Of a stretch of 64,000 bases of DNA, positions 1,750 through 50,881 are shown piece after piece. Positions within the stretch are counted from its first letter, which is position 1. Each line of letters opens with the position of its first letter. The translations under genes were made by a program, and so were the position numbers. The notes beneath the pieces are model-generated. The model saw only the letters and a list, made by a program, of their open reading frames with translations. It did no database searches and was not told where the DNA came from. Source of the stretch: Candidatus Bathyarchaeota archaeon (GTDB taxonomy: Archaea; Thermoproteota; Bathyarchaeia; Bathyarchaeales; Bathycorpusculaceae); contig CAWABA010000001.1 in assembly GCA_963780185.1 (NCBI GenBank), positions 128,001 to 192,000 on the forward strand, written 5' to 3'.

Positions 1750-2715
1750 CTAAGCAATCTGTACTGGTTCGCGTCGATAAGTCATTGTAACCTTCTGGAA
1801 CAGCTTAACTATGTCCAGCGAGCAAAAGAACATTTTAGTCAGGTACTCATGTTGGTAAATCATCATCTGCGCCTTCACAGGCAAGTCAATTCGTGGAGGT
1901 TCAAACCTTCGTTCAACCGTGGAAACCTGAAGCCCTTCAACACTGACGTCATCTTCATGCATACCCGTTTTGTTGGCGATGTAGCCCAGATAGGTTTCTT
2001 TCCAGTTTAGCATCATGACTTTGGCGGCGGCAATATCCACGGCTAGGGCGTCGTTGCCTGTCAGCATTAATCCCATTTTGACGGGTTTGCCTTTTGTTGG
2101 ACCGTTGCCTTCAATGCCGACCCGTGCATCCATAATCGTGAGCTGCGGCTTGAACAGGGTGTAGAGGCGATAGAACACTTCAGGCAGGTAGGGGTGCAGG
2201 TAGATGCGTTTGTTGCTGGGGACGCAGCCGAAGAGGTTTTTGATTGCGCCGCTGTAAGCCATAAACTCGTGCGTTTTCATCAGGGGCAAATCCACGACGG
2301 CGTCGGCGTCAAGGACGGTTTTGGGTAGAAACAGCCGCTTCAATGGGGTGTTGCCCGCAAATTTTACTTCGACGAGTTTGTCTTCGGAGAGGTTGATTAC
2401 GGTGCCGCCTGCAGCCTTCACCGCAGCTTGGGCGCCTGTTTTATCGAAGGCTGTCCAGCAGGGATAATTGAACCCGTTGGATTCGCCTACGATGACTTCG
2501 CTGTTGCCGTCGCGGAGCAAACCGACGAGTTGCCGCATAAGCTCTGGGCTCGTCACCACGCCCGGCAGGTATTCGGGGTGGCTCAAGTTAGGCTTAATGA
2601 AAATCTTGCGTTTGCCGTGCAGCCCTGATTTAGCGACGGCTTCCTTTACAATGTCGCTTATGTCGTCTTTGGCACGGAAAATTTTAACGGTTTGTGGGTT
2701 AGGCACTGTTAGCAC
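1750..2715 (-). CDS. DUF362 domain protein (putative Fe-S protein)
   Basis: IFIKPNL, LPLMKTH, GAIKNLFGC, IMDARVGIEGNGPTKG and DALAVD motifs. Confidence 0.85.
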   Translation of the reverse strand: MLTVPNPQTVKIFRAKDDISDIVKEAVAKSGLHGKRKIFIKPNLSHPEYLPGVVTSPELMRQLVGLLRDGNSEVIVGESNGFNYPCWTAFDKTGAQAAVKAAGGTVINLSEDKLVEVKFAGNTPLKRLFLPKTVLDADAVVDLPLMKTHEFMAYSGAIKNLFGCVPSNKRIYLHPYLPEVFYRLYTLFKPQLTIMDARVGIEGNGPTKGKPVKMGLMLTGNDALAVDIAAAKVMMLNWKETYLGYIANKTGMHEDDVSVEGLQVSTVERRFEPPRIDLPVKAQMMIYQHEYLTKMFFCSLDIVKLFQKVTMTYRREPVQIA

Positions 2716-4126
2716 CTTTCACTCCCGTTATGCAGCCAGGGTCGCCATTAAGCATGTCACCGTTATGGTAAGCTGCTGAACGTGCCCTGCAGCCGCCGCA
2801 GATGAACTTGTAGTCGCATTTGCCGCAGGACCCTTTAAGGTTGGCTCTGTTTCGAAAAGCGTTGAAGAGCGGCGCTTTGAGCCAGATGTCTTGGAACTTT
2901 TCGTTTTTGAGGTTGCCCACGTTTACTGGCAGGAAGACGCATGGGTGGACATCGCCTTGAGGTGACAGTGAGCAGTATAGTCGTCCTGCGCCACATCCGC
3001 CGATGAAGTCGCCAAGCGGAACCGCTTTTTTAGTTACCTTGACTGTTTGCATGTGCGCCAGGGACATGGTTACTTCGCCTGTACCTGATGAACCCTGACA
3101 CTGCAGGGCTACACGCGCAAGCTGAGGCGCAGTGGCTAAGATTGTGGTTTTGCAGCCAGCAGACATACGATTCAGCAGGTAACGCAGCACCTTTTCGCGT
3201 TCTTGAGGCGACAAATCTTGGTCAACATGTGCTTTGCCCCGTCCAGTTGGAATAAAATTGAAGTAGGTGAATCGTTCCGCATGAATTTCCTCGGCTAAAT
3301 CGATAATGGCTGGCAACTCCGCCATGTTATTTTTGCCCACCGTCGTAGCAATGCAAACACACAGGTCAGCTTCAACACAATTCTTAAGGCCAGCCAAAGC
3401 CTTATCAAACGTGCCTGGGACGCCTCGAAACTCATCATGCGTTTTGGCAGAGGCGCCGTCTATACTGACGTCGATGTAGTTTACTTTAGCTTGCTTGATT
3501 TTCTGCACATTCTCTTTTGTTAGCAGAGTGCCGTTTGAAGCAAGTGACACGTAGAGTCCACGGTCAGATGCGTGCCGCGCAACCTCAAAGAAGTCACTGC
3601 GCGTCAAAGGTTCACCTCCGCTGAAAGCCAACGCAGTCACACCAGCATCCGCCAGCTGATCCACAACCGCCAACGCCTGCTCAGTGGTTAATTCTTCCTC
3701 TTGAACTGCGCCGCTGTTGGAGTAGCAGTGCTTGCAGGCTAAGTTGCATTTGTGGGTGAAATCCCAAACAACCAGAAACGGGGCGGAAAGCGACATGGGT
3801 TTTTTTATGCCGAAATAAGCAAACGACCGAACTAAATTAAGAACCGCTGTTCGGGCGTAGCGGTCCGACAGAAGCTTCTCTACTTTTTCACGCTTAAAGT
3901 TGAGGCTTCTGCGCAAAAACTCGATCCAGAAACCCACAACCTGTGAATAGAATCGGCTGCAGGCTTCACATTTTTTGTCCGTTTTGCCCGCGTAATCATC
4001 CAACGCTGCTTCAAGAACTGTCCTTCCGCAAGCAGGGCACTTCTTAAGTGACAGCTTGAGCATCCGCTTAGTCATCGGCAGCGTTATCACTGCATTCCAG
4101 AAGGTATCATGGCTAAGTAAGCTCAT
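2699..4126 (-). CDS. Radical SAM/SPASM protein, similar to the GMGT synthase (Gms) family
   Basis: CNLACKHC, FSGGEP, SPASM GCGAG...PC...CGKCDYKFICGGCRA. The N-terminal extension ending FGIKKPMSLSAPFLVVWDFT matches my recollection of the archaeal Gms-type family. Radical SAM call is firm; Gms assignment is tentative. Confidence 0.75.
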   Translation of the reverse strand: MSLLSHDTFWNAVITLPMTKRMLKLSLKKCPACGRTVLEAALDDYAGKTDKKCEACSRFYSQVVGFWIEFLRRSLNFKREKVEKLLSDRYARTAVLNLVRSFAYFGIKKPMSLSAPFLVVWDFTHKCNLACKHCYSNSGAVQEEELTTEQALAVVDQLADAGVTALAFSGGEPLTRSDFFEVARHASDRGLYVSLASNGTLLTKENVQKIKQAKVNYIDVSIDGASAKTHDEFRGVPGTFDKALAGLKNCVEADLCVCIATTVGKNNMAELPAIIDLAEEIHAERFTYFNFIPTGRGKAHVDQDLSPQEREKVLRYLLNRMSAGCKTTILATAPQLARVALQCQGSSGTGEVTMSLAHMQTVKVTKKAVPLGDFIGGCGAGRLYCSLSPQGDVHPCVFLPVNVGNLKNEKFQDIWLKAPLFNAFRNRANLKGSCGKCDYKFICGGCRARSAAYHNGDMLNGDPGCITGVKGANSA

Positions 4127-4199
4127 CCGAGGCGAGTCTCCTGAAACAGCAACAGGGGAAGAGTAGGTTGGGCGGGGATGTTAAATATTTCCCTAAACG

Positions 4200-4817
4200 T
4201 TAAAATTTGGTTTTCATGATTTTTTCTGCTATTTCCAGGTCTTTGAGCGTGTTAATGTTGAGTAGGACTTCGAGTTCTTGCGTGATTAAGGCATTTGTTT
4301 CGATTTTTCCTTCGCCTTGGATTCTTGCGCCGTTTACAATGTTGACTCCTGACACCGCGTACCATATGCCCATGTACTCGTCGGTGGAGTCAATGGAGAG
4401 CCCCAAAGCTTCGCGGGCTTGAATGGGAACGAAAACCGCATAGAAATCTTTCCCGCAAGCCTCAAACTGGTTGACGATTTTGTCGAGAAACTTGCCTGTG
4501 ACAGCTGGCGAATCCGCTGGAACCGTCAAAACAGGACCCATCAAGTTGGCCATCCGCGTTGCCTGCTTGAGGTCGTTGTGGTACCCGTTGGCGTCGGTGC
4601 AAAGAACCTTCCAGCCCCTCTGCTTGCAGTGCAACTCGGTTTGGGGCGTGTTGGGGCTTGTGACCACGTAAAACTCGGAAACCCGCTCTGCGTCTGCAAC
4701 CGCTTCGACAACCCAGTCCAAGAGCGGTTTGCCCAGAAAGGGCAGAAGCGGCTTCTCCACTGGCAACCCGATGCGTTTGCCCCTGCCGCCAGCCATAATC
4801 AACGCGGGAACCTTCAT
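4200..4817 (-). CDS. CobY-like NTP transferase (paralog 1)
   Basis: ALIMAGGRGKRIGLPVEKPLL, VPADSP, GVNIVNG and NINTLKDL. Homologous to the copy at 15361-15980. Confidence 0.85.
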   Translation of the reverse strand: MKVPALIMAGGRGKRIGLPVEKPLLPFLGKPLLDWVVEAVADAERVSEFYVVTSPNTPQTELHCKQRGWKVLCTDANGYHNDLKQATRMANLMGPVLTVPADSPAVTGKFLDKIVNQFEACGKDFYAVFVPIQAREALGLSIDSTDEYMGIWYAVSGVNIVNGARIQGEGKIETNALITQELEVLLNINTLKDLEIAEKIMKTKF

Positions 4818-5644
4818 AGAAGAATCAACACGCCTGCAAACAAAATAAGCGTAACTGCCCTTGCCACCTCGTTTGTTGCGCCGATGGCGTCGCCTGAAAC
4901 CCCGCCGAAAACTCTCTGCGAAACCTTCGCCATCACAAACGCCACTGGAACGCTAACAAGAACCAGCCCGACGGCAACCAACCCCACGTAAGGTTTGCCT
5001 ATCAAAGCGAAAAACGGGTAAACAATCAAGACTGAGAGCGGGTAGGCGATTGCGTTAAGTTTGGTTTTTGCTTTCTTCAGGAAAATCGAGCCTAACCCCT
5101 TATGCGTGGGTTTGCCGACCCAGACGATGGTAACCATGGATAGTTTGGCTGAGAGTTCGGCGGTGAGGATGGCTCCGAAAGCGTAGAGTGGGTTAATCAG
5201 GAACAAGCCTGCGAACGCGGCAAACTCTACAACCATCGCCAGCAGGGCTCCCCAGTAGGTTACGGTCCAGGCGTGGGCGACCATTTTGCGGTCATGGAGG
5301 TTTCGCAGTCCGAAGGCGTTGCCTAGGTCGATTAAGCCGTCGAAGTGTTGGAGTCCTGTGAGGACCAGTAGGAACGCGACGGTCATGGCGGCGACCGCAA
5401 GCTTCGAAAGCAAGTCAACTGGCAGGGCAACTAACGAGTTAACTAAGCTGAGCAGATAGTGGACTATGATGTTTACGCCGACAAAGTAGGTGCCTGCAAG
5501 CACGCCGATTAAGCCGCCTACGATGGGAAAAAGATAAACGTGCTCTGCAGTGGTGAATATGAAATCTTCTTTTCCGCCCACGGGGATTATGGTTAGGAAA
5601 GACAGCAAATCCCTAAAAGTTTTTATAGCTTTCGCAGGCGACAT
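4814..5644 (-). CDS. CobS-like membrane transferase (divergent paralog)
   Basis: LLSFLTIIP, TGLQHFDGLIDLGNA and FGGVSGDAIGATNE; multiple TM segments. Confidence 0.85.
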   Translation of the reverse strand: MSPAKAIKTFRDLLSFLTIIPVGGKEDFIFTTAEHVYLFPIVGGLIGVLAGTYFVGVNIIVHYLLSLVNSLVALPVDLLSKLAVAAMTVAFLLVLTGLQHFDGLIDLGNAFGLRNLHDRKMVAHAWTVTYWGALLAMVVEFAAFAGLFLINPLYAFGAILTAELSAKLSMVTIVWVGKPTHKGLGSIFLKKAKTKLNAIAYPLSVLIVYPFFALIGKPYVGLVAVGLVLVSVPVAFVMAKVSQRVFGGVSGDAIGATNEVARAVTLILFAGVLILL

Positions 5645-15984: not shown

Positions 15985-16074
15985 TTAGTTTTTTGAAGAT
16001 TTACTTTCCAGCACTTCCTTGAGCGTTTCTTTCATTTTCCGAGCGTCGATGTCCAGAATCGGGGATTCATGGAT
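15985..16074 (-). pseudogene. Orphan 3'-end relic of the EndoIV-like gene
   Basis: Translates as IHESPILDIDARKMKETLKEVLESKSSKN*, versus ICESPVLDIDARKMKETLTKVLKERL... at the end of the 16744-17633 gene. Confidence 0.85.
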
Positions 16075-16273
16075 CAAGGCTTGTTAGCTAATGAAAGAGA
16101 GTAAATCCCTTTTGGGAGTCCATTGTCAATAGTTTCGGGTTGGTGGTGATAGTGGTGGTAATGGTCACAATAATGCTTTTAATCTGGGGTAAATGAATAA
16201 ACAGATGTGGTATGAGTTGGGCAATCAATATGATGGGAAGACTTAAAAGAAAGAATACATTATTAAGATTTAG

Positions 16274-16582
16274 ATGTTAAATATGCCTGTCAAAAGCATA
16301 GACGAGAAAAAACTCAATCTGATCGATGCATCAGAAGTCCCACCCGGAAGGATAAGAGTCACAAGATGGCAAGTTATTTTTGATGAGATTCCTGCGGGAA
16401 AGGCTTGGGTTGTTACTGAGAAAGAGATTAGTTTCACAGCTGTTAGATGTTCTCTTTATGAGCTTCAACGTAAAGGTCAATTTAAGAATCTTGCCGCGCG
16501 TAAGGTCAAGGAACCTGACGGTTCCTACAGGCTATACGTGATCAATACAACCGAGGTAAAACAAAAGAAGTTAGCAGTATAG
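16274..16582 (+). CDS. Hypothetical 102-aa basic protein (cargo)
   Basis: Clean AT-rich ORF with an AT-rich upstream region, lying between two copies of the EndoIV-like 3' end. Confidence 0.65.
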   Translation: MLNMPVKSIDEKKLNLIDASEVPPGRIRVTRWQVIFDEIPAGKAWVVTEKEISFTAVRCSLYELQRKGQFKNLAARKVKEPDGSYRLYVINTTEVKQKKLAV

Positions 16583-16743: not shown

Positions 16744-17633
16744 TCATTGCTTCATGCTTTTAAAAATGAGTCTTTCCTTTAGAACTTTCGTGAGCGTTTC
16801 CTTCATCTTCCTCGCGTCAATATCCAAGACCGGCGACTCGCAAATCATTGTCGGATGCATCTGGAAATCCGCGATAACTTCAGCCAGCATGCGGAAGTCT
16901 GGACCGTACTCTTCCTCGTCAAGGGTGTGATGTTTTTTTTCGCCTTGGGCGCTGTACTCGATTTTTGAGAAGTGACAATGCATGCTGCGCATCGCTTCAG
17001 TGCCGAGCCTCTCTTCGACTTTTTCCGCGATTGCCCTGAAATCCTCAGTTTTCTTCAAGGTCCCTTGGTGGAGGGCATGCAGGTGTGCCCAGTCAACGAC
17101 GAGTTGTGTGTCTTCGATTTCTTGGTTGAGCGTTAGGATTTCGTCTATGCTGCCGACTTGGAATTTTCTTCCCATGGTTTCGGGACCCAGCTTCACTTGA
17201 AGCCGAGGCTTCGCATTTCGGCGCTGACTTCTTTGAGTGCTTTGAGGCAGGTTTTGAAGGCGAAGTCTTTTTCGAATTTTCCGTGAAATCCCGTGTGGAA
17301 AACCATGACGTAAGCTCCCATCCAGTCCGCTGCGGTTGCAGAAGCGATTAGCCGCCGTTTGCTGGCTTCCACAACGTCGGGTTTGCCTGCGAAGTTGATG
17401 AAGTAGGAGCCGTGGAGGCTAAGCCGAACGTCGCTTTGTTTTGCAGCTTCCCCCAGCTTTATGGCGAGGTCTCTTGAAATCTGCGGTTTTGGACCCCAAC
17501 GCACTGCCTCGTACTCCAACGCATCCAAGCCTTCTTCACGCAGCAGTTTGGGCACGTCGGGCAAGTCTGCTCCCATAAGCCGAAACATCGGCGGCACGCC
17601 TGCGGGTCCAAAACGGGTACGCTCAGCCATCAA
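16744..17633 (-). CDS. Endonuclease IV-like TIM-barrel protein (frameshift near 17195)
   Basis: RFGPAG, SLHGSYFINF, VFHTGF, GPETMG, VDWAHLHA, HCHFS, EKKH and ICESP metal-ligand motifs across two ORFs. Confidence 0.85.
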
Positions 17634-17678: not shown

Positions 17679-18035
17679 TTAAGTAACTATTCTTATTCTC
17701 TTTTTGCTGATAATAATTAGCTTGTTTCTTATTTCTTTGAGATCAATTTTTTGTTGAGCAATATTCAGAGTCTCTATGATATTTTCAGGAGTAGCAGGTT
17801 TTGCTCTTATGATTATTACCGTAATTTTATCTTTTTTGAAAGTCCGATAGATTTGTGAGAAGTCTTTATCCATGGTAATAATTGCTAAGTGGTTTTTTAA
17901 CGCGAATTGAGCTATAGCGAGGTCTTTGGTTCCTTTAAGAGGTGTTTGAGAGACACGTATAAGATCAAAGCCTTTCTTCAAAAGCCACTCTACGGCGTCT
18001 CTCGGAAGGCTTTCATCAACTATTAGCTGTGGCAA
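17679..18035 (-). CDS. DUF5615 PIN-like toxin (VapC45 type)
   Basis: LIVDESLP, D..I and IITMDKDF motifs. Downstream of DUF433; AT-rich. Confidence 0.8.
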   Translation of the reverse strand: MPQLIVDESLPRDAVEWLLKKGFDLIRVSQTPLKGTKDLAIAQFALKNHLAIITMDKDFSQIYRTFKKDKITVIIIRAKPATPENIIETLNIAQQKIDLKEIRNKLIIISKKRIRIVT

Positions 18036-18051
18036 ATGTACGCAAGCTCTT

Positions 18052-18288
18052 TTACAATGTAATTGTCTCTTCGTTTTGCAAACATTTTGAGGCATAAAGA
18101 AGAGAGGCTTTGATGTCTTCACTTTTAATCGAAGGGTATTGCCTAAGAACTTCTTTTTCCGTCAAGCCATTACCGAGAAGTTCAATGATTAGATAAACTG
18201 GGATGCGTGTTCCCTTTATTACGGGTTTTCCAGCGAGGATTTCAGGGTCAATTACTATTCTGTCCATGACTTCTTCCATGAAATTCAT
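18052..18288 (-). CDS. DUF433 antitoxin
   Basis: IVIDPEILAGKPVIKGTRIPV...YPSI..EDI.A.L.YA. Confidence 0.9.
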   Translation of the reverse strand: MNFMEEVMDRIVIDPEILAGKPVIKGTRIPVYLIIELLGNGLTEKEVLRQYPSIKSEDIKASLLYASKCLQNEETITL

Positions 18289-19163: not shown

Positions 19164-19984
19164 CGCTGTTTGCTCTCCTTGGCTTTGAGGATTATTTTTT
19201 CTGCTTCGTAAATGTCAATGACGTTTTTGGGGAACCCCAGCGGCGACAGCTTCGAGAAGACCTGCGCTATCTGAGGAAGAACAATCGAGGACTCCGCCAG
19301 AATCTGCGGGTTCGTCAGGATGTCTTTTCCTGAGCCTTCAGCAACGATTTTTCCTTCCTTCATCAAAACAACGCGGGGGTTGCATTCCGCGACGAACTCC
19401 ACGTCATGGGTAACTATTACTACGGTTTTTCCCTGCGACTGCATCTGCAAAATGAACTGGGTTAGCTTCTCTTTCTGCTCGTGGTCTTGCCCGATGGTGG
19501 GTTCATCCAGAATCAGCGTCTGCGGGTTCCATGCCAAAACCGAAGCCAACGCGACTCGTTTTCGTTCGCCTCCGCTTAAGAGGAAAGGCGACGTTTTGCG
19601 GTACTGCGTAAGTGACAGAAGCTCCAGAGCCCACGTTACCCTTTTCTCAACTACGTCTGGGGTGAACCCGAAGTTTTTGAGAGCAAACGCGATTTCTTCT
19701 TCGACGGTTTCGCTGAAAAGTTGATGGTCAGGGTTCTGGAACACAAAGCCGACGTTTCTTGCGAGTGTTGCGACGCTTGTTTTGGTTGTTTCAACCCCGT
19801 CCACAAGCACTTTTCCAGATGTTGGTTTCAGTAGGCCGTTGAAGTGTTTGACGAAGGTTGATTTTCCCGCCCCGTTTTGCCCCATTACCGCCAGGAACTC
19901 GCCGTCTTTTATGGTTATAGAGACGCCTTTGAGGGCTTCTACCTTGTTAGCGTAAGAGAAGTGAACGTCTTGTGCCTCAATCAT
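19160..19984 (-). CDS. ecfA: ECF transporter ATPase
   Basis: GQNGAGKST, FQNPDHQLF, LSGGE, LDEPT and VTHD. Confidence 0.9.
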   Translation of the reverse strand: MIEAQDVHFSYANKVEALKGVSITIKDGEFLAVMGQNGAGKSTFVKHFNGLLKPTSGKVLVDGVETTKTSVATLARNVGFVFQNPDHQLFSETVEEEIAFALKNFGFTPDVVEKRVTWALELLSLTQYRKTSPFLLSGGERKRVALASVLAWNPQTLILDEPTIGQDHEQKEKLTQFILQMQSQGKTVVIVTHDVEFVAECNPRVVLMKEGKIVAEGSGKDILTNPQILAESSIVLPQIAQVFSKLSPLGFPKNVIDIYEAEKIILKAKESKQR

Positions 19985-46446: not shown

Positions 46447-47025
46447 TTGGCTAAAGAATCAGAAATATCCGTCTTCACGATTGGGCATTCAACCCGAACG
46501 CTTGACGAGTTCATCGGTTTGCTCAAAACCTACTGCGTGACCTTAGTCGTTGACGTTCGCACGGTTCCCCGCAGCCGACACAACCCCCAATTCAACAAGG
46601 AAACCCTGCCTGCCAGCCTCAAACCCAGCGGCATACGCTACATTCACATGCCTGAAATCGGCGGCCTACGCCATCCAAAACGCGACAGCATCAACCTCGC
46701 ATGGAAAAACATGGGGTTTCGAGGCTACGCCGACTACATGCAAACCAAAGAATTCACCGACAACCTCCTAAAAATCGTCGCCCTCGTACGGGAAAACACC
46801 TTGGCGTTGATGTGTGCGGAAGCTTTGCCTTGGCGGTGCCACAGAAGCCTCATCAGCGACGCCCTCGTGGTACGCCACATAAAAGTGAAGCACATCATAA
46901 GCGCAACCAGCCTCATCAGCCACCAGCTATGCGAGATGGCGCAGGTAGAAGGCACAAAAATAACCTATCCTTTGTTCAGCAGAGAAATGCCGCAGAGGAC
47001 GCTGGGCGACTTTGGTTCAGGATAA
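46447..47025 (+). CDS. DUF488 family protein with a C-terminal PIP-box-like motif
   Basis: FTIGHSTR, VDVR..P.SR, GG.R, MCAE...WRCHR..I.D; ends QRTLGDFGSG. Confidence 0.9.
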   Translation: MAKESEISVFTIGHSTRTLDEFIGLLKTYCVTLVVDVRTVPRSRHNPQFNKETLPASLKPSGIRYIHMPEIGGLRHPKRDSINLAWKNMGFRGYADYMQTKEFTDNLLKIVALVRENTLALMCAEALPWRCHRSLISDALVVRHIKVKHIISATSLISHQLCEMAQVEGTKITYPLFSREMPQRTLGDFGSG

Positions 47026-47113
47026 ATTGTGCACTTTCTATGTTGTATTTTGTGTACTTTTTGCAACACAAGCCTTTTAAGTTTATTCGCCCCACTCATC
47101 AATGGGGTTGGTT

Positions 47114-47335
47114 ATGTCCACAACAATTACCATCCGCATTCCCAAAGACCTTAAAGAGAAAATGGATAAAACGCCTGCGGAATGGAGCCAAGAAGTCCGA
47201 ACCTTCATAGAAGCAAGAGTTAAACAGGCTGAAATGCTCCAAACCCTTGAAGAAATCGAGAAACGCGCAGACAAGAGAAAAACAAAGGTTGACTCAACCG
47301 TCCTAATACGGGAGGACAGAGAACGCCAAACCTAA
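47114..47335 (+). CDS. RHH/VapB-type antitoxin
   Basis: TITIRIP..LKEKM, WS.EVR.FIE and S..LIREDR. Confidence 0.85.
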   Translation: MSTTITIRIPKDLKEKMDKTPAEWSQEVRTFIEARVKQAEMLQTLEEIEKRADKRKTKVDSTVLIREDRERQT

Positions 47336-47772
47336 TCCTAGATTCAAACATCATCTCAAAACTAATCATCAGCGAACCCGGCTCAAAAGAAGCCCGAATC
47401 ACCATCGCCGCCTCCCTGAAAAAAGGGGTTGCCCTCTACACAGTTGACCTTGCCTTAATCGAGGGCTTAAACGTCATCTGGAAGCATGCCATGCTGCTTA
47501 AGGACCTAAAGATAGAAGAGATAAACTCCACGATAGAAGACCTAACCCGCGTATACGACGGCTTAAATGTTATCCCCGCCCGCGAACTAACCGTCGAATC
47601 AATGCAGGTAGCATTAAAACACAAGGTAAGCATATACGACGCCCTCTACATTGCCGCCGCAGAAAAAATAAACGGCACACTATACACTGCAGACCAAAAA
47701 CTCTTCAGCAGCGCGAAAGAGGTCACCAGCACAAAAATCCTCAAAGCCAGCCCAGACCTCGCGAACCTTTGA
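47323..47772 (+). CDS. PIN-domain VapC toxin (no canonical start; ACG)
   Basis: In frame upstream of the listed ORF: TPNLILDSNIISKLII.EPGS, then E..NVIWK, YDALYIA.A and TADQK. Confidence 0.8.
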   Translation, partial: TPNLILDSNIISKLIISEPGSKEARITIAASLKKGVALYTVDLALIEGLNVIWKHAMLLKDLKIEEINSTIEDLTRVYDGLNVIPARELTVESMQVALKHKVSIYDALYIAAAEKINGTLYTADQKLFSSAKEVTSTKILKASPDLANL

Positions 47773-47838
47773 AAGCCCAATAATTTGGTAACTTAATAGG
47801 GCTCAAGTAGGCTAGCTTAAGGAAGCCGAGTTCCGTCC

Positions 47839-47932
47839 AGCGAAATTTCACGTGGAAGGACCAAAAATAACCTTCGCACTTTACCTCAAAGGAACGCCAC
47901 AAAGAACTTTAAGCGATTTCGGGCAAAAATAA
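47839..47932 (+). pseudogene. Orphan 3'-end relic 1 of DUF488
   Basis: HVEGPKITFALYLKGTPQRTLSDFGQK*, versus QVEGTKITYPLFSREMPQRTLGDFGSG* in the intact gene. Confidence 0.85.
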
Positions 47933-47981
47933 CTTGGCTTTACTTGCCAAAACTTTTATGCTCATTTGCAGACTAAAGAGC

Positions 47982-48362
47982 ATGTCTACGCCTAAAGAAC
48001 GCGGCACGTTGATCGCGGTCTGGCTGCTTCTCTTGCTTGTGGTAAACTTGTTTGTTCTTCTTTTTTATTTGGCGTTAGCGATTTACCCATCTACTTTCAG
48101 CCTGCTAACCGCGATTATGCCCTTGTGGACACTTTATTTATTTGCCGCTCTCGCTGCATTTAACGTTGTTTGTGTTTGTTTTCTGTTCCTCTGGAAAAAG
48201 TGGGCTTTCTTCGGACTCTGCGGAAGCACGGCAGCAGCACTAGCAGCTAATTTGTATATTGGCGCAGGGCCCTACGCCGTTTCGGGAGTATTCGGAGTAG
48301 TCATTACATATTTGGTGATTCACGACAAATGGAACCTTTTCGATGATTTCTATCTAATCTGA
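47982..48362 (+). CDS. Small 4-TM membrane protein (cargo)
   Basis: MSTPKERG.L...WL...LFLWKKWAFFG; hydrophobic throughout. Confidence 0.75.
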   Translation: MSTPKERGTLIAVWLLLLLVVNLFVLLFYLALAIYPSTFSLLTAIMPLWTLYLFAALAAFNVVCVCFLFLWKKWAFFGLCGSTAAALAANLYIGAGPYAVSGVFGVVITYLVIHDKWNLFDDFYLI

Positions 48363-48387
48363 AGAAAGTGCTGAATTCAAGAATTTA

Positions 48388-48481
48388 TTGAGCATGATGG
48401 CGCAGGTTGAAGAAAAAAAATAACTACTTTATCAGCAAAGAAACACTACAAAGAACACTAGGCGACTTTACCGCAACTTGA
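48388..48481 (+). pseudogene. Orphan 3'-end relic 2 of DUF488
   Basis: LSMMAQVE / ISKETLQRTLGDFTAT*. DNA gatggcgcaggttgaag matches gatggcgcaggtagaag in the intact gene. Confidence 0.85.
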
Positions 48482-48583
48482 TTGCTTTAACTGATAAATA
48501 ATATTCTCAAGCCTTTATTTCATTTAGTAAAGCTAAAAAGCATTTGCTATAATTACGTTATAGAACAAAAAGGATGGTGCGCT

Positions 48584-49484
48584 ATGTTGGCTAATTATAC
48601 TCCAGCGGATTTTCGAATAAAACGAGGTATGCTACCAGCAGATGCATTCGCATATGGACCTAAAATCAATTATCTGCCAACTGATTTGATCGATGTAGAT
48701 ACATGGAATAGCATGACCAGTCTGCCTGATGATGTAAGTCTTCGTACATCCGGTGATTATGGTTCCACTTTAAAGCTTTATTGGAAAGCATGGGATGACT
48801 GGATTTGTTTAGCTATAGCTTTACAGGATATTGCCAATAAAGCATTCGACTCGCCAATTGCCAATTGTGCTACCGTAGGTATAGATGAGATTCAGGGGTC
48901 CATTTACAACGCACTCGTTGGTTTTTATCGCTTATCGTTTTCCGCATTAAGAAATATGGTTGAGCAGATTACGATAGGTCTTGCTCTTGAATTATCAGGG
49001 AACAATAAAATTTTTATGGAGTGGCTTAAGGGCGATACGGACCTTAAATTTGGTTGGGCTTCAGACCTCTTACTTCAGAATCAATCAATTCATAACCTGG
49101 AGGAAATGCTACTGCAAAGCATAGGTGACAGTCTTTTCCGACAAAAGACGAACTGATAACAAAGGCGGTTTTGCTCGCCGCTTATTTAGCGAATTGAGTC
49201 AGTTTACACATGGTAACCCAGAGTTTTCTAATGCAGATTTATGGGAAGGTAGTAACGGTCCAATTTTCGTGCCAAAATCTTTCAAAAGGTGGTCAATTAC
49301 ATTTTCTAAAGTATTTGCTCTCTGTGTTATCGAGGCTAAGCTTGCTAAACCTACCATCACAGTTTTAGGTGCTGGTTCAAAGCAAACTATTGACAATCTT
49401 TACAGTTTGTTACTTGGCAAAATTCCAGCAAAAGAAGATGGCTCTGCGATCTTTAAAGCGTTGATAGACTTGAAGATAATTTAA
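48584..49484 (+). CDS. AT-rich hypothetical protein, possibly HEPN-like (DUF5677-like; frameshift near 49150)
   Basis: GFY..S.S.LRN.VE and LFSELSQFTHG motifs; two ORFs join into ~300 aa. Confidence 0.55.
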
Positions 49485-49534
49485 ACTTCAATTAGTTTAG
49501 CAGGAAGCTCAAGAAAAGAGAATTGAAAAAAAGG

Positions 49535-50881
49535 CTATTGTTTTTGTAGTTTTGCTATGAAGAATCCGTTGCATTGATGAACGTTCGGGTAAAGCCGCTG
49601 GCACTGGCTAAGTCCACGCAGCCCCGGCAGCCCCAGTTCAGGCTTGATTTCTGCCAAGCTAAATTCCGGGTGGTCTTTGAGGAACCGCTCGATGATTATT
49701 TCGTTTTCTTCAATCGTTATGCTGCATGTTGAGTAGATCATGACGCCGCCAGCCGCCACCATTTCCGCGCAGTTGTTAATCATGCTCCATTGGATGTCTG
49801 CCATTTTGCTGATTGATTTTTGGGTGATTCGCCATTTGGATGAGGGCTGCTTGGCGAAGATGCCCGTTCCCGTGCATGGCGGATCCAGAACTATCAGGTT
49901 TGCTTCGCCTGAAAACGGCAGGCTGACACATGCGCTGGCGATGATCGGCTCCGCGATTTTGGTTCCCATGCGACTGGTTTCCAGCTTCCACGTCTGCATC
50001 CTGCGCGCCGAAAAATCAACCGAGTAAATCGCGCCGTTGTTTCCCATTTGCTGGGCTAAGTAGGTTGTTTTGGCGCCTGGAGCCGCGCAAACATCGAAGA
50101 CGACGCTGCCTTCTTTGGGGTCGGCGACTTCTGTGGCAAAGCAGCTTGCCTTGTCTTGAACGTAGAATAATCCTTCTTTGTAGCTGGGTAGACTGTTCAG
50201 CGGCTGTTTGGTTTCGCACAATTTGTAGGTGAATTTTAGTGGCGACGCTTTTTCCAGTTTGACGCCTTCCGCATCAAGCTTTTGCACGATGGTTTCTTCG
50301 GTTGCGGCTAAAGTGTTGACTCGTAGGTAAGTGGGCGGCGGGTTCATGCTTCCCTGCAGAAAAGCTATGGCTTCGCTGCGTCCCATAAGGTTGAAGCAGT
50401 AGCGGACAAACCAAACAGGGTGGAAAGTGTCAAGGCTGGTCCGTTCCTCGTCGTCTGCTGCTTCCAGTATGGGTTCCAGTTGGCGTGTAAGCAGAAAACC
50501 AAGGTACTGCTCGACTTCGTGCAGGGTTTCCCAGCCGAGGATGGCTCTTCCCATGCTGGCGATTTGCTGGGCTTCTTGAAGGTTGACTTTTCCCCAGTTC
50601 TTCGCGACGCGGGTTTGGTAAACGTAAAGCCGAAGGAACGCTTGGATGCCGAGGTTGTAGTCGCTGATTTTTTTGGGTGCCACGACGGTGTTGACGAGTT
50701 TGTCGATGAGGTTTCGGCGTCTGGTGACTTCGACGACGAGTCCGTAGGCGTAGCGTATGGCGTTTGGGTCTTTTACGGCGAGTTGGTTTATGGTTTTGGT
50801 GAGGGCTAAGTGTTCGCTGAGTTTCTGCATTTCCATCCAGCTTAGGGTTTCAATGGCGACTGTCCAAGCATCCTTCAACAA
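49535..50881 (-). CDS. RsmB/NOP2 RNA m5C methyltransferase
   Basis: YLRVNTL, VQDKAS, DVCAAPGAKT, LDPPCTGTG, YSTCS...EENE and GFFIAKL. Confidence 0.95.
   Translation of the reverse strand: MLKDAWTVAIETLSWMEMQKLSEHLALTKTINQLAVKDPNAIRYAYGLVVEVTRRRNLIDKLVNTVVAPKKISDYNLGIQAFLRLYVYQTRVAKNWGKVNLQEAQQIASMGRAILGWETLHEVEQYLGFLLTRQLEPILEAADDEERTSLDTFHPVWFVRYCFNLMGRSEAIAFLQGSMNPPPTYLRVNTLAATEETIVQKLDAEGVKLEKASPLKFTYKLCETKQPLNSLPSYKEGLFYVQDKASCFATEVADPKEGSVVFDVCAAPGAKTTYLAQQMGNNGAIYSVDFSARRMQTWKLETSRMGTKIAEPIIASACVSLPFSGEANLIVLDPPCTGTGIFAKQPSSKWRITQKSISKMADIQWSMINNCAEMVAAGGVMIYSTCSITIEENEIIIERFLKDHPEFSLAEIKPELGLPGLRGLSQCQRLYPNVHQCNGFFIAKLQKQ

Follow-up and report, generated by a model that had tools for sequence, protein, structure and literature searches.

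The 3′ end of a conserved DUF488 gene in a Candidatus Bathyarchaeota genome is followed by a three-module array in which copies of the gene's own tail stand serially between the cargos. The array lies in the 64,000-nucleotide stretch of DNA that was analysed (hereafter the window) and occupies the space between DUF488 and a convergent rsmB-like gene; from the gene outward, the vapBC module is nearest to DUF488, a small membrane-protein gene that we call tm4 is in the middle and a 299-aa gene is nearest to rsmB (Table 1). The target stays intact, DUF488 being a full 192-aa ORF, with direct repeats of its end flanking the inserts. We consider it highly probable that the locus is a tail-replacing hotspot with modular, exchanged cargo, which is the part documented directly below; the whole account, a tail-replacing insertion hotspot with an inferred site-specific step, falls a little short of an even chance. 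DUF488 has an ortholog in 113 of the 119 other genomes of the genus, and in the literature on DUF488 we found no report that bears on this locus.

Table 1. Features of the DUF488 array and its right border (positions in the window).
Feature	Position	Strand	Evidence
DUF488 gene, 192 aa, conserved target	46447..47025	+	PF04343, E 1.7e-33
Resident DUF488 tail, functional repeat copy, ends ...GDFGSG-stop	46929..47025	+	alignments
vapB-like antitoxin candidate, 77 aa	47102..47335	+	overlaps PIN ORF by 4 nt
vapC, PIN-domain toxin candidate	47332..47772	+	PF01850, E 1.1e-10
Relic 1, in-frame displaced DUF488 tail, ends ...SDFGQK-stop	47838..47932	+	nhmmer E 2.1e-12, tblastn E 3.9e-5
Small membrane-protein gene (tm4), likely start ATG at 47982	47934..48362	+	hydropathy scan
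Relic 2, displaced DUF488 tail, 5-nt deletion, ends ...DFTAT-stop	48394..48481	+	nhmmer E 1.9e-10
299-aa gene ('HEPN-like'), frameshift near 49125-49156	48584..49484	+	single ORF in L099
rsmB/NOL1-type methyltransferase gene, convergent, right hotspot border	49535..50881	-	PF01189, E 8e-45

The original prediction held that the last ~30 codons of DUF488 occur three times on the same strand, and this is what we find: once in the gene and once in each of the two relics. Relic 1 is in frame and reads VEGPKITFALYLKGTPQRTLSDFGQK up to its stop codon. In relic 2 the MAQVE stretch and the terminal SKETLQRTLGDFTAT are in different frames because of a 5-nt deletion. Both copies lie beyond chance, as judged by the nhmmer E-values (Table 1), for which 101 loci of ~20 kb were scanned with a profile built on the final 123 nt of the DUF488 genes of the genus. 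When the last 41 residues were searched with tblastn against the 2.75-Mb genome for additional 3′-end relics, the gene itself scored E 3e-23, relic 1 was recovered and relic 2 was weak (E 2.0); no DUF488 tail besides the gene and the two relics was found, none scoring below E 1. The two relics had been said to begin near the same codon, and both starts indeed lie within about 6-14 nt of gene position 46929-46943, which places the common left boundary of the two relic-forming events ~97 nt before the stop. Synonymous differences are many, as had been pointed out: 27 codons compared between the gene and relic 1 comprise 5 identical, 11 synonymous and 11 non-synonymous ones, and the relics resemble alleles of other lineages, not recent tandem copies. 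The spacers before the relics were also considered as older, longer DUF488 remnants and rejected, since 163-463 of 500 shuffles reach the observed score; no evident common motif was seen in the spacers 5′ of the relics. The idea that a relic is the remainder of a second full gene copy was dropped as well, the spacer between vapC and the relic being dissimilar on inspection to the vapC-DUF488 spacer of L056 and L059, two species with vapBC upstream of DUF488.

The predicted order of the cargo, VapBC followed by a 4-TM protein and then an 'HEPN-like' gene, is borne out. The first module has the VapBC arrangement, a PIN toxin ORF preceded by a small overlapping ORF. The vapB-like ORF shares 91% protein identity with the copy at the same site in L055, and vapC shares 89%. 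The 77-aa vapB-like ORF had no Pfam or PADLOC match at the thresholds used, and no ATG, GTG or TTG was found upstream of the PIN N-terminus as a canonical start for vapC. The tm4 ORF encodes a hydrophobic product of 126-142 aa with 3-4 hydrophobic stretches in a crude hydropathy scan; it too had no Pfam or PADLOC match at these thresholds. Homologs of tm4 (57-70%) stand directly behind DUF488 in L054, L060 and L065 and in nine metagenome loci.

The 'HEPN-like' gene does follow relic 2, but the two overlapping ORFs seen there (48584-49156 and 49125-49484) are one gene broken by a frameshift: L099 has the ortholog as one uninterrupted ORF of 299 aa, with 88% and 83% identity to the two halves, and in the genome of the window the gene is in two pieces with stops. 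The 299-aa gene has no relic of its own, here or in L099. Its region is low in G+C (0.32-0.41), and its family turns up in just 3 of the 120 genomes of the genus, as well as in bacterial MAGs; no Pfam or PADLOC family match was obtained at the thresholds used. An AF2 model of the L099 ortholog (pLDDT 86.3) returned nothing at E 0.001 or better in a Foldseek search against the PDB. In a wide VIA-align search the top four matches were HEPN domains (rmsd 2.8-3.9, 114-131 residues aligned) with Z-scores of 8.1-8.8, values under ~13 being weak for helical bundles. The catalytic motif of HEPN proteins is Rx4-6H, and it is absent from the 299-aa family in a 33-sequence alignment read by eye. The conserved Arg nearest to the invariant H209 is R198, 10-11 residues upstream, and the conserved R123-N124 pair is followed by E127 and no His. 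The product is possibly a HEPN-type protein.

Across relatives the cassette content of the DUF488 locus is variable and gene order is not fixed. The predicted insertion hotspot is apparent from the locus itself: 48 of 100 genus loci are empty sites, with 0-25 nt between DUF488 and the convergent rsmB-type gene, and the non-empty ones hold at least 12 types of cargo at this junction. Among 80 metagenome loci, 33 have the empty site (25 nt or less). Longer gaps in the 100 genus loci measure 26-350 nt (15 loci), 351-1000 nt (3) and above 1000 nt (22). The cargos include a restriction-modification trio (L081), IS elements, a trio of two membrane genes with an XRE gene, a restriction-enzyme-like gene that matches PADLOC REase_II (E 1.1e-12) and, in L117, DUF4062+pYEATS (PF13271, E 2e-25). 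With its conserved flanks and alternative cargo, the locus is a core-gene-flanked variable (defence) hotspot.

The modules of the window recur singly. L055 carries the vapBC module alone, in the order DUF488-vapBC-relic (one species), and L054, L060 and L065 carry DUF488-tm4-relic, with the relic 18-92 nt from rsmB (three species); tm4 with a relic is also present in several metagenome contigs. In L099 the 299-aa gene, intact, stands between DUF488 and rsmB (one species), and L161 has tm4 and a relic plus 1.1 kb more. Taken together, the loci form a clean natural series that runs from the empty site through single modules to stacks of two or three. Relics were found solely on the + strand and inside the gap, in 5 of the 100 genus loci besides the window and in 5 of the 80 metagenome loci. 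The best relative among the metagenome contigs is 86% identical, so that the comparison is above strain level. In L087 the insert measures 5.3 kb and holds ParA-like, MFS and other genes, with no integrase; its relic begins at another boundary, 165 nt ahead of the stop, and is in frame and barely decayed, and the event is therefore taken to be recent.

We then compared tails with cargo. As far as sequence comparison can tell, each cargo goes with a particular version of the DUF488 tail, which stands upstream of it. An ending in K before the stop is found in 7 of 12 DUF488 genes that carry tm4, as against 5 of 163 without a listed cargo, and at vapBC loci DUF488 ends in G before the stop. The last ~26 nt of the resident tail, together with the sequence downstream, are common to L055, which likewise carries vapBC. 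The relics behave in the same way: the best codon-level matches of relic 1 are the tails that precede tm4 in L054 and L060, and the functional tail closest to relic 2 stands before the 299-aa gene in L099. This agrees with the proposal that incoming DNA renews the C-terminus and displaces the old end. For L054 and L060/L191, the nearest neighbours of the 5′ part of the gene are loci without tm4, whereas those of the tail are tm4 loci. Support from tail clustering is limited to these nearest neighbours; group-level clustering of tm4-linked tails above that of the 5′ parts was not supported (within-minus-between identity 0.043 for tails vs 0.062 for 5′ parts).

Third-codon positions separate the cargos from their surroundings. 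Between the window and L055, vapB/vapC are 87% identical at third codon positions, compared to 52-68% in four flanking genes, and between the window and L099 the 299-aa gene is 79-82% identical, compared to 51-63% in the flanks. The similarity of vapBC and of the 299-aa gene between species is far above that of their flanks, so both have moved horizontally. L055 and L099 are placed far from the window in our proxy for the species tree, a FastTree phylogeny of PolB alone with 72 rows, from which L060 and L087 are missing because their PolB match is partial. For tm4 the third-codon identity is 51-68%, like that of the flanks, and vertical descent with losses can therefore explain its distribution. 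The vapBC block is 90-98% identical between the window and L055 (about 47080-47826) and ends at the bounding repeats. The functional tails of the two loci are 76% alike except for the last ~26 nt, and the two relics ~60%.

The 3′ end of DUF488 normally lies next to the convergent rsmB-type gene, the two stop codons being ~10-20 nt apart. We propose that small gene modules enter repeatedly at this end, and that each of them starts with its own version of the last DUF488 codons. An entering module would give the gene a new tail, and the resident tail would be pushed downstream and decay as a relic. A short core, ~97 nt from the stop, was probably the place of the crossover that made the original joints, as happens when integrated elements of archaea target the 3′-distal region of a protein gene; the recombinase may have been supplied in trans or lost along with the rest of the element. 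Homologous recombination, acting in the tails and the flanking core genes, would then have carried tail-flanked modules from species to species and reshuffled them, and it probably brought in the relic-less 299-aa gene as well. The predicted stacking of insertions is retained in so far as tails are displaced, but not as a single mechanism throughout, given that the innermost 299-aa module lacks a relic. Points against the site-specific account are the size of the modules (0.55-1.05 kb), the lack of a recombinase gene in the array or window and the separate relic boundary of L087. Furthermore, the vapBC identity block excludes its bounding repeats, which a single fixed crossover does not predict; neither the tail pair nor the relic pair shares identity at the vapBC level.

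The window contains no integrase, as had been noted before. In the genome, PF00589 has three matches, all on contig C7 and none on C1, and PF00239 has none. No recombinase gene was found beside or inside the arrays examined or in the relic-bearing DUF488 loci, and the only recombinase-like ORF among the clustered gap ORFs of the 100 genus loci, of which the Pfam scan covered part, is a C-terminal fragment in L130. In viral contigs, a scan with the aligned last 57 residues gave 19 pattern matches, none of which was confirmed, and no virus or plasmid form was seen; an integrase-bearing element with DUF488 as its target was found neither there nor in 181 loci. At the left edge of the repeats, identical runs measure 12 nt (gene vs relic 2), 9 nt in L054 and 9 nt in L087, and are lacking for relic 1 and L055. 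These runs could be due to chance or conservation.

Could the array have formed with no dedicated recombinase at all? This is the main rival, possible if rather doubtful in our estimation. A fragment or circle with tail and cargo would be integrated by host homologous recombination, in a Campbell-type event or an out-of-register double crossover with tail and relic as portable arms; the first joint would be illegitimate or based on microhomology, and later spread would run via the tails and the flanking core genes. The absence of an integrase from all arrays speaks for it, as do the different relic boundary of L087 and the greater likeness of the cargo than of its bounding repeats, which is expected of crossovers at varying places. 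The short left-edge runs are compatible with microhomology, and the lack of relics at the 299-aa gene and most other cargos fits replacement through DUF488 and rsmB. However, although the gene is 579 nt long, the starts of the tm4 and vapBC relics fall within about 6-14 nt of one another, tails that are ~65-80% identical over ~95 nt are a poor substrate for homologous recombination, and partial-tRNA repeats of the classical kind surround cargo in this genome. A mirror scan, which looked for 5′-end relics upstream of genes, returned a few weak candidates, mostly shared signal peptides, against 5-6 clear 3′ relics, a contrast drawn on a crude ORF set and not a statistical test; a direction-blind mechanism would not predict it, although selection could produce it.

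An old, vertically inherited array, with a single ancestral entry and later deletion between direct repeats in most species, at a site that is not active, is improbable. The junction from tm4 to its relic is homologous in all tm4 loci and points to a single origin, tm4 has diverged like the flanks, the tm4 loci of the window, L053 (a fragment), L054 and L065 fall in one 27-row clade of the PolB tree, and a loss of the DNA between tail and relic would leave a precise empty site behind. Such an array is hard to reconcile with vapBC and the 299-aa gene being far closer than the flanks between distant branches, with the many unrelated cargos at the site, with the recent event in L087 and with a 299-aa family found in just a few genus genomes and in bacterial MAGs. 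Even less probable is a true integron-like platform, in which a recombinase encoded elsewhere would act on a fixed primary site in the DUF488 tail and a structured site in each cassette. Ordered same-strand cassettes between diverged copies, the fixed left boundary and similar small cassettes at other gene tails recall such a platform, but its defining feature is missing, as no integrase adjoins it in 181 loci. Moreover, the repeat is coding sequence under protein constraint, as its synonymous differences indicate, and not a hairpin site; the cassette identity blocks exclude the downstream site, and the innermost cassette has no repeat. The term 'integron-like', if meant as membership, was therefore abandoned: no recombinase gene lies beside or inside the arrays examined.

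The genome is a MAG in 13 contigs, and the array is spanned by reads in part. Four public sequencing runs held 0.00-0.13 of the sampled words, in contigs that were mostly single 151-nt pieces; the runs or the bridging pieces may derive from the source sample. Exact pieces of 151-156 nt bridge two junctions, from the DUF488 tail into module 1 (46919-47069) and from tm4 into relic 2 (48323-48474), and leave 47098-47211, 47782-47895 (at relic 1) and 49150-49491 uncovered. They show no joints, circles or empty-site form and are too thin to speak on absence. A strain chimera joined at the repeated tails, for which the contig number and the thin coverage could be cited, is hardly credible, as the repeats (61-84% identical over 25-38 nt) are too diverged for misassembly, single-module versions with the same junctions exist in the independent 3-9-contig assemblies G095, G099 and G123, and two junctions are bridged by exact pieces possibly from the source sample.

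How does the tail-replacing hotspot compare with known systems? Integrons hold small, promoter-poor cassettes in the same orientation; a diverged recombination-associated sequence bounds each cassette, and the newest one stands at the entry point. The DUF488 array resembles them in its ordered, same-orientation small cassettes between diverged sequence copies, and differs in having no IntI-type gene adjoining and a repeat that is a host gene tail evolving as coding sequence. In streptococcal ICE families, integrase-less att-flanked segments are stacked at the 3′ end of a gene and are thought to be moved in trans. These cis-mobilizable elements share with our locus the accretion at a gene 3′ end in the absence of an integrase; ours, in contrast, is archaeal, and no integrase-bearing relative with the same target is present in the loci and viral contigs surveyed. 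Hotspots of bacterial pangenomes have core-gene flanks and alternative toxin-antitoxin or restriction cargo, often lack mobility genes and exchange via the flanks. Fixed core flanks with many alternative cargos are seen here too; to our knowledge, serial relics of the flanking gene's tail have not been described for bacterial defence hotspots, and unlike there, the DUF488 tail belongs to the exchanged module.

Going by a survey of Thaumarchaeota, 14 of 68 integrated elements lie in 3′-distal regions of protein genes, and arrays of elements arise through re-use of the site (PMC6563490). As that survey presents them, these elements share with the DUF488 modules the protein-gene 3′ target, a new end and stop supplied by the element, flanking direct repeats, the empty site in relatives and tandem arrays (PMC6563490). 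They are described there (PMC6563490) as having their own integrase or casposase, a length of kb to tens of kb and att sites with a median of 17 bp, whereas the modules here measure 0.55-1.05 kb, have no recombinase gene, are bounded by ~95-nt diverged coding repeats and recur singly in other species. In the account given of Prochlorococcus tycheposons, newcomers push older elements deeper into the island (bioRxiv 10.1101/2020.12.28.424599). Serial integration at one site, partial target copies amid cargo and degraded elements without integrases in the islands are further likenesses in that account (bioRxiv 10.1101/2020.12.28.424599), and the differences are a tRNA target, encoded tyrosine recombinases, a bacterial host and mobility that is experimentally shown, the DUF488 modules being known from sequence alone.

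The series of loci shows how small genes related to conflict, among them toxin-antitoxin pairs, restriction systems and possibly a HEPN-type protein, enter between two tightly convergent core genes and damage neither. Bathyarchaeia are abundant uncultured archaea of sediment and peat, and their means of gene exchange are largely unknown. If the modules were moved in trans at a defined core, the locus would be a simple recombinase-less archaeal cassette platform and the displaced tails a readable record of the order of acquisition. If homologous recombination alone were at work, a gene tail of ~95 nt would be enough to act as a portable homology arm between species that have diverged by ~20%. 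In both cases, the relic signature offers a practical way to look for recent gene gain in metagenome-assembled genomes.

A wider reading, which we judge unlikely, is that Bathyarchaeia have recombinase-less 'tail-first' mini-cassettes, mobilised in trans, stacked at many tails and traded between species. Each would open with a sequence that imitates either the final 25-55 codons of a host gene or the 3′ part of a tRNA. With host gene tails as their attachment sites and toxin-antitoxin and other conflict genes as preferred cargo, they would correspond in archaea to integron or cis-mobilizable cassettes. Speaking for the tail-replacing account of the DUF488 locus itself, tail relics in this genome also flank cargos of 0.6-0.9 kb at four other protein genes, namely those for an aminotransferase, deoxyhypusine synthase and a Zn-ADH and a gene of the window; the deoxyhypusine synthase relic has a 22-nt identical run at its left edge. 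At tRNA-Gly and tRNA-Thr, the cargo has partial copies of the tRNA on its flanks, and the tRNA-Thr array includes a tyrosine recombinase ORF.

The DUF488 locus and its relatives show an insertion hotspot at which the tail of the gene is replaced, with cargo that is modular and horizontally exchanged. In the window, the gap between the stop codons of DUF488 and of a convergent rsmB-type gene holds vapBC, a small membrane-protein gene and a 299-aa gene, as well as two relics, i.e. displaced and diverged copies of about the last 30 codons of DUF488. A repeat finder run on the window reports a three-copy 38-nt family, whose two other members are 61% and 76% identical to the copy in the gene, and a 25-nt repeat pair at 84% identity. 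According to a nucleotide profile of the last 123 nt of DUF488 in the genus (101 loci scanned), relic 1 scores E 2.1e-12 and relic 2 E 1.9e-10, while a tblastn search of the 2.75-Mb genome with the last 41 residues yields no DUF488 tail other than that of the gene itself (E 3e-23), relic 1 (E 3.9e-5) and, as a weak hit, relic 2 (E 2.0). The three 3' ends named in the original prediction are therefore real. Both relics start near the same place, gene position ~46929-46943, as had been proposed, and the spacers upstream of them are no more similar to DUF488 than shuffled controls. Relic 1 is open in frame up to its own stop codon and, over 27 codons, shows 5 identical codons, 11 synonymous and 11 non-synonymous differences to the resident tail; it thus diverged as a coding allele and is no decayed recent duplicate, in line with the earlier reading of the relics as alleles rather than recent tandem copies. 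Relic 2 carries a 5-nt deletion. The G+C content of the stretch with the split 299-aa gene is 0.32-0.41 versus ~0.5 around it.

Features of the array in the window and of similar sites elsewhere in the genome (C1, C7, C9 and C11 are its contigs; positions without a contig refer to the window)
Feature	Position	Strand	Match, cargo or copies
DUF488 gene	46447-47025	+	PF04343, E 1.7e-33
vapB-like ORF, 77 aa	47102-47335	+	
PIN-domain ORF (vapC)	47332-47772	+	PF01850, E 1.1e-10
Relic 1, diverged DUF488 tail	~47838-47932	+	
Hydrophobic ORF, 126-142 aa (membrane gene)	47934-48362	+	
Relic 2, diverged DUF488 tail	~48394-48481	+	
Two overlapping ORFs (299-aa gene, split)	48584-49156 and 49125-49484	+	
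rsmB/NOL1-type methyltransferase gene, convergent	49535-50881	-	PF01189, E 8e-45
Family-B DNA polymerase (PolB) gene	beyond rsmB-type gene		
Region with relic behind aminotransferase (L212)	C7:61558-63664		DUF2283 pair
Region with relic behind deoxyhypusine synthase (L213)	C11:29179-31046		Fic/Doc and small ORF
Region with relic behind Zn-dependent dehydrogenase (L214)	C9:77395-79190		166-aa ORF
Relic behind gene read as two ORFs (17193-17633 and 16744-17196)	~16000-16080	-	
tRNA-Gly(CCC), then ATPase gene, then partial tRNA copy (L215)	C1:12894-14320		AAA_14/DUF4143
tRNA-Thr(GGT) region	C7:4434-19848		partial copies 5061-5099 and 19807-19848

DUF488 is present in 113 of the 119 other genomes of the genus. 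The gene in the window matches PADLOC candidate-defence models (PDC-M45B, E 1.6e-35; PDC-M19A, E 9e-24); despite these matches, DUF488 is a near-universal syntenic core gene in the genus. We compared ~20 kb around 100 DUF488 genes, all genomes being metagenome-assembled and related ones not independent. The usual state is an empty site, and variation at this place is high: the gap to rsmB measures at most 25 nt in 48 of the 100 loci, 26-350 nt in 15, 351-1000 nt in 3 and more than 1 kb in 22, while rsmB is not found within 3 kb or more in 7, lies in the other orientation in 2, and the contig ends too soon for a call in 3. Clustering of the gap ORFs in these loci gives at least 12 unrelated cargos. 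Eight loci hold a trio of two membrane proteins and an XRE protein, seven a small membrane protein encoded on the opposite strand, three a large secreted protein with repeats, and three a 370-aa protein whose C-terminus is restriction-enzyme-like (PADLOC REase_II, E 1.1e-12). The other cargos include a Vsr-like, restriction and cytosine-methylase trio read from the sequences (L081), DUF4062 with pYEATS (L117), IS transposases (in L047 and L062) and a radical-SAM-like protein. A like picture emerges from 80 metagenome loci, where the gap is at most 25 nt in 33 and the closest DUF488 is 86% identical to that of the window. The insertion hotspot and the cassette variation expected from the original prediction are thus borne out.

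The modules of the window recur in other species, singly or stacked. L055, a locus of genome G123, has the order DUF488-vapB-vapC-relic, followed by a 154-aa ORF and rsmB, and its VapB and VapC are 91% and 89% identical to those of the window. Three loci (L054 of G099, L060 of G095 and L065 of G072) read DUF488-membrane gene-relic-rsmB, with membrane genes 57-70% identical to that of the window and 18-92 nt between relic end and rsmB, which equals the spacing of empty sites; in L053 (G122), from the PolB sister of the window, the membrane gene is reduced to a 25-residue fragment. L099 (G079) has DUF488, then one unbroken ORF of 299 aa (88% and 83% identical to the two ORFs of the window), then rsmB, with no relic. 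A profile scan places relics exclusively on the + strand and within the gap, in 5 of the 100 genus loci (L054, E 5e-19; L055, 5e-10; L060, 2e-9; L065, 0.05; L087, 2e-27) and 5 of the 80 metagenome loci (L161, E 3e-17; L191, 9e-10; L155, 0.009; L171, 0.08; L146, 0.15), counts that are partly non-independent because L065 has near-identical counterparts in L155 and L171, and L060 in L191. L161 is a further stack, with membrane gene, relic and then 1.1 kb more. The 5.3-kb insert of L087 (aaRS-like, MFS, polyprenyl-synthase-like, HTH and ParA-like genes, no integrase) is followed by an in-frame relic of 165 nt that scores 92-96 against the genes of other species and 67 against its own resident gene. 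A vapBC pair 68-79% identical to that of the window also lies ~80-700 nt upstream of DUF488 in L056, L059, L054 (vapB only) and L137, so both sides of DUF488 receive this toxin-antitoxin family.

Versions of the DUF488 tail move together with the cargo that follows them. The resident tails of the window and L055, both in front of vapBC, end in SG before the stop and share the next ~20 nt. A terminal K precedes the membrane gene in 7 of 12 loci versus 5 of 163 loci without listed cargo, counts inflated by related genomes; relic 1, upstream of the membrane gene, ends in GQK, and at codon level it matches the tails of L054 and L060 best (20 and 19 of 27 codons identical or synonymous). Relic 2, upstream of the 299-aa gene, ends in AT and is closest to the tail of L099, with similarity extending into intergenic sequence. 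These affinities fit the proposal that an incoming module supplies a new tail and pushes the old one downstream. In L054 and L060/L191, the nearest neighbours of the 5' 480 nt of DUF488 are loci without the membrane gene, while those of the tail are loci with it, although such statements are noisy since the tails are short. As a group mean, membrane-gene tails are no more clustered than the 5' parts (excess identity 0.043 versus 0.062). The junction between the 3' flank of the membrane gene and the relic is homologous in all loci having it; it had a single origin, after which it was passed on by inheritance or by transfer along with its relic.

Third-codon identity between the window and L055 is 87% for both vapB and vapC versus 52-68% for the flanking agmatinase, DUF488, rsmB and PolB genes, and that between the window and L099 is 79-82% for the 299-aa gene versus 51-63% for the flanks. 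In a PolB FastTree (72 rows), a single-gene proxy for the species tree, L055 and L099 share a small clade that lies far from the window. Members of the 299-aa family are present in just 3 of 120 genomes of the genus, and the 85 relatives found in the protein collection include some from Acidobacteriota and other bacterial MAGs. Because cargo identity far exceeds that of the flanks between such distant genomes and the 299-aa family is patchy, vapBC and the 299-aa gene must have been exchanged between lineages. For the membrane gene, third-codon identity to L054/L060/L065 is 51-68%, like the flanks; this module is old and could reflect vertical descent with losses.

The signature is not confined to DUF488. 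A census (the C-terminal 40 residues of 2786 ORFs searched in the genome, same-strand downstream copies kept, paralog ends removed, crude ORF calls) found relics behind three genes on other contigs, with inserts of 0.6-0.9 kb each and no recombinase gene. Up to the stop, 69 of 78 nt are identical in the deoxyhypusine synthase relic, whose left edge has a 22-nt run of identity, and 96 of 136 nt in the dehydrogenase relic. In the window, ~25 codons near the 3' end of the 16744-17633 gene recur ~670 nt further downstream, matching at 69% across 26 residues (E 6e-7) and with 45 of 59 nt identical. A 102-aa ORF (16274-16582, +) stands in between, and the signature is the one found at DUF488. The window also has, at 17679-18288 (-), two overlapping small ORFs of 147 and 78 aa that by sequence resemble a further toxin-antitoxin pair. 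A mirror-image scan of the genome for 5' relics gave few and weak candidates. Two tRNA genes, tRNA-Gly and tRNA-Thr, repeat the pattern. The tRNA-Thr site is a stacked array including an integrase-bearing element, with a 403-aa tyrosine-recombinase ORF (C7 14739-15950, -) between its partial tRNA copies. In G099 (L216, C3 1853-5891), two copies of a 60-nt tRNA 3' part, 93% identical, enclose a restriction/methylase pair (2216-4743), and a homolog of the 299-aa gene stands behind the second partial copy, which closes the restriction-modification module; the same cargo family is thus stacked at a tRNA site in another species.

For the entry of the modules we tentatively favor site-specific joining at the left end of the DUF488 tail, by a recombinase acting in trans or by a since-lost integrase, after which modules would have been reshuffled by homologous recombination. 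The 90-98% identical vapBC block of the window and L055 is confined to ~47080-47826; in the final 100 nt their functional tails agree at 76% (~92% in the last ~26 nt only), and their relics are ~60% alike. One fixed-core crossover or one Campbell event would give cargo-like identity to tails or relics, and neither has it, so a two-step history is needed: old insertions, and later an exchange in which only the vapBC block took part. The 299-aa gene, having no relic, probably arrived by ordinary replacement through the flanks. A close rival, somewhat less likely, is recombination alone, without a dedicated recombinase; the common left start of the two relics speaks against it. The relic boundary of L087, at 165 nt before the stop versus ~97 nt in the window, does not fit a simple model. 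No recombinase gene lies near the array or in any array examined in the relatives: the genome has three PF00589 matches, all on C7, and none to PF00239, which agrees with the earlier statement that the window has no integrase. Membership of the array among integrons is not supported.

The process is of a known kind: in archaea, elements that integrate in the 3'-distal portion of protein genes and form arrays at a single site are described in PMC6563490, and stacking with target fragments between cargo in a preprint on tycheposons (bioRxiv 10.1101/2020.12.28.424599). Unusual for such integration are the small modules with no recombinase gene at all, the long, diverged and coding repeats, the recurrence of the same modules singly and stacked across species, and the presence of the signature at several gene tails of a single genome.

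Since its counterpart in L099 is a single ORF, the 299-aa gene of the window is frameshifted. The frameshift lies at 49125-49156, and the G099 homolog is likewise a single ORF; the split reflects either decay to a pseudogene or an assembly indel within a short A-rich run, where public reads, which over the array are short pieces and may stem from the source sample, give no cover. The protein, earlier called HEPN-like, has no Pfam or PADLOC match, and its AF2 model (pLDDT 86.3) no Foldseek match. In a wide VIA-align search the top four hits are HEPN domains at Z 8.1-8.8, weak for helical bundles according to the tool. The canonical HEPN motif is Rx4-6H, and it is absent from the family alignment. 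A HEPN-like fold is hence possible but unproven.

In vapC, no ATG, GTG or TTG occurs between the upstream in-frame stop and the conserved N-terminal Asp, the first canonical start within the PIN ORF being at 47491. The vapC of L055 likewise lacks a canonical start, yet the N-terminal part is open and 89% identical, which points to a non-canonical start or some coupling to vapB.
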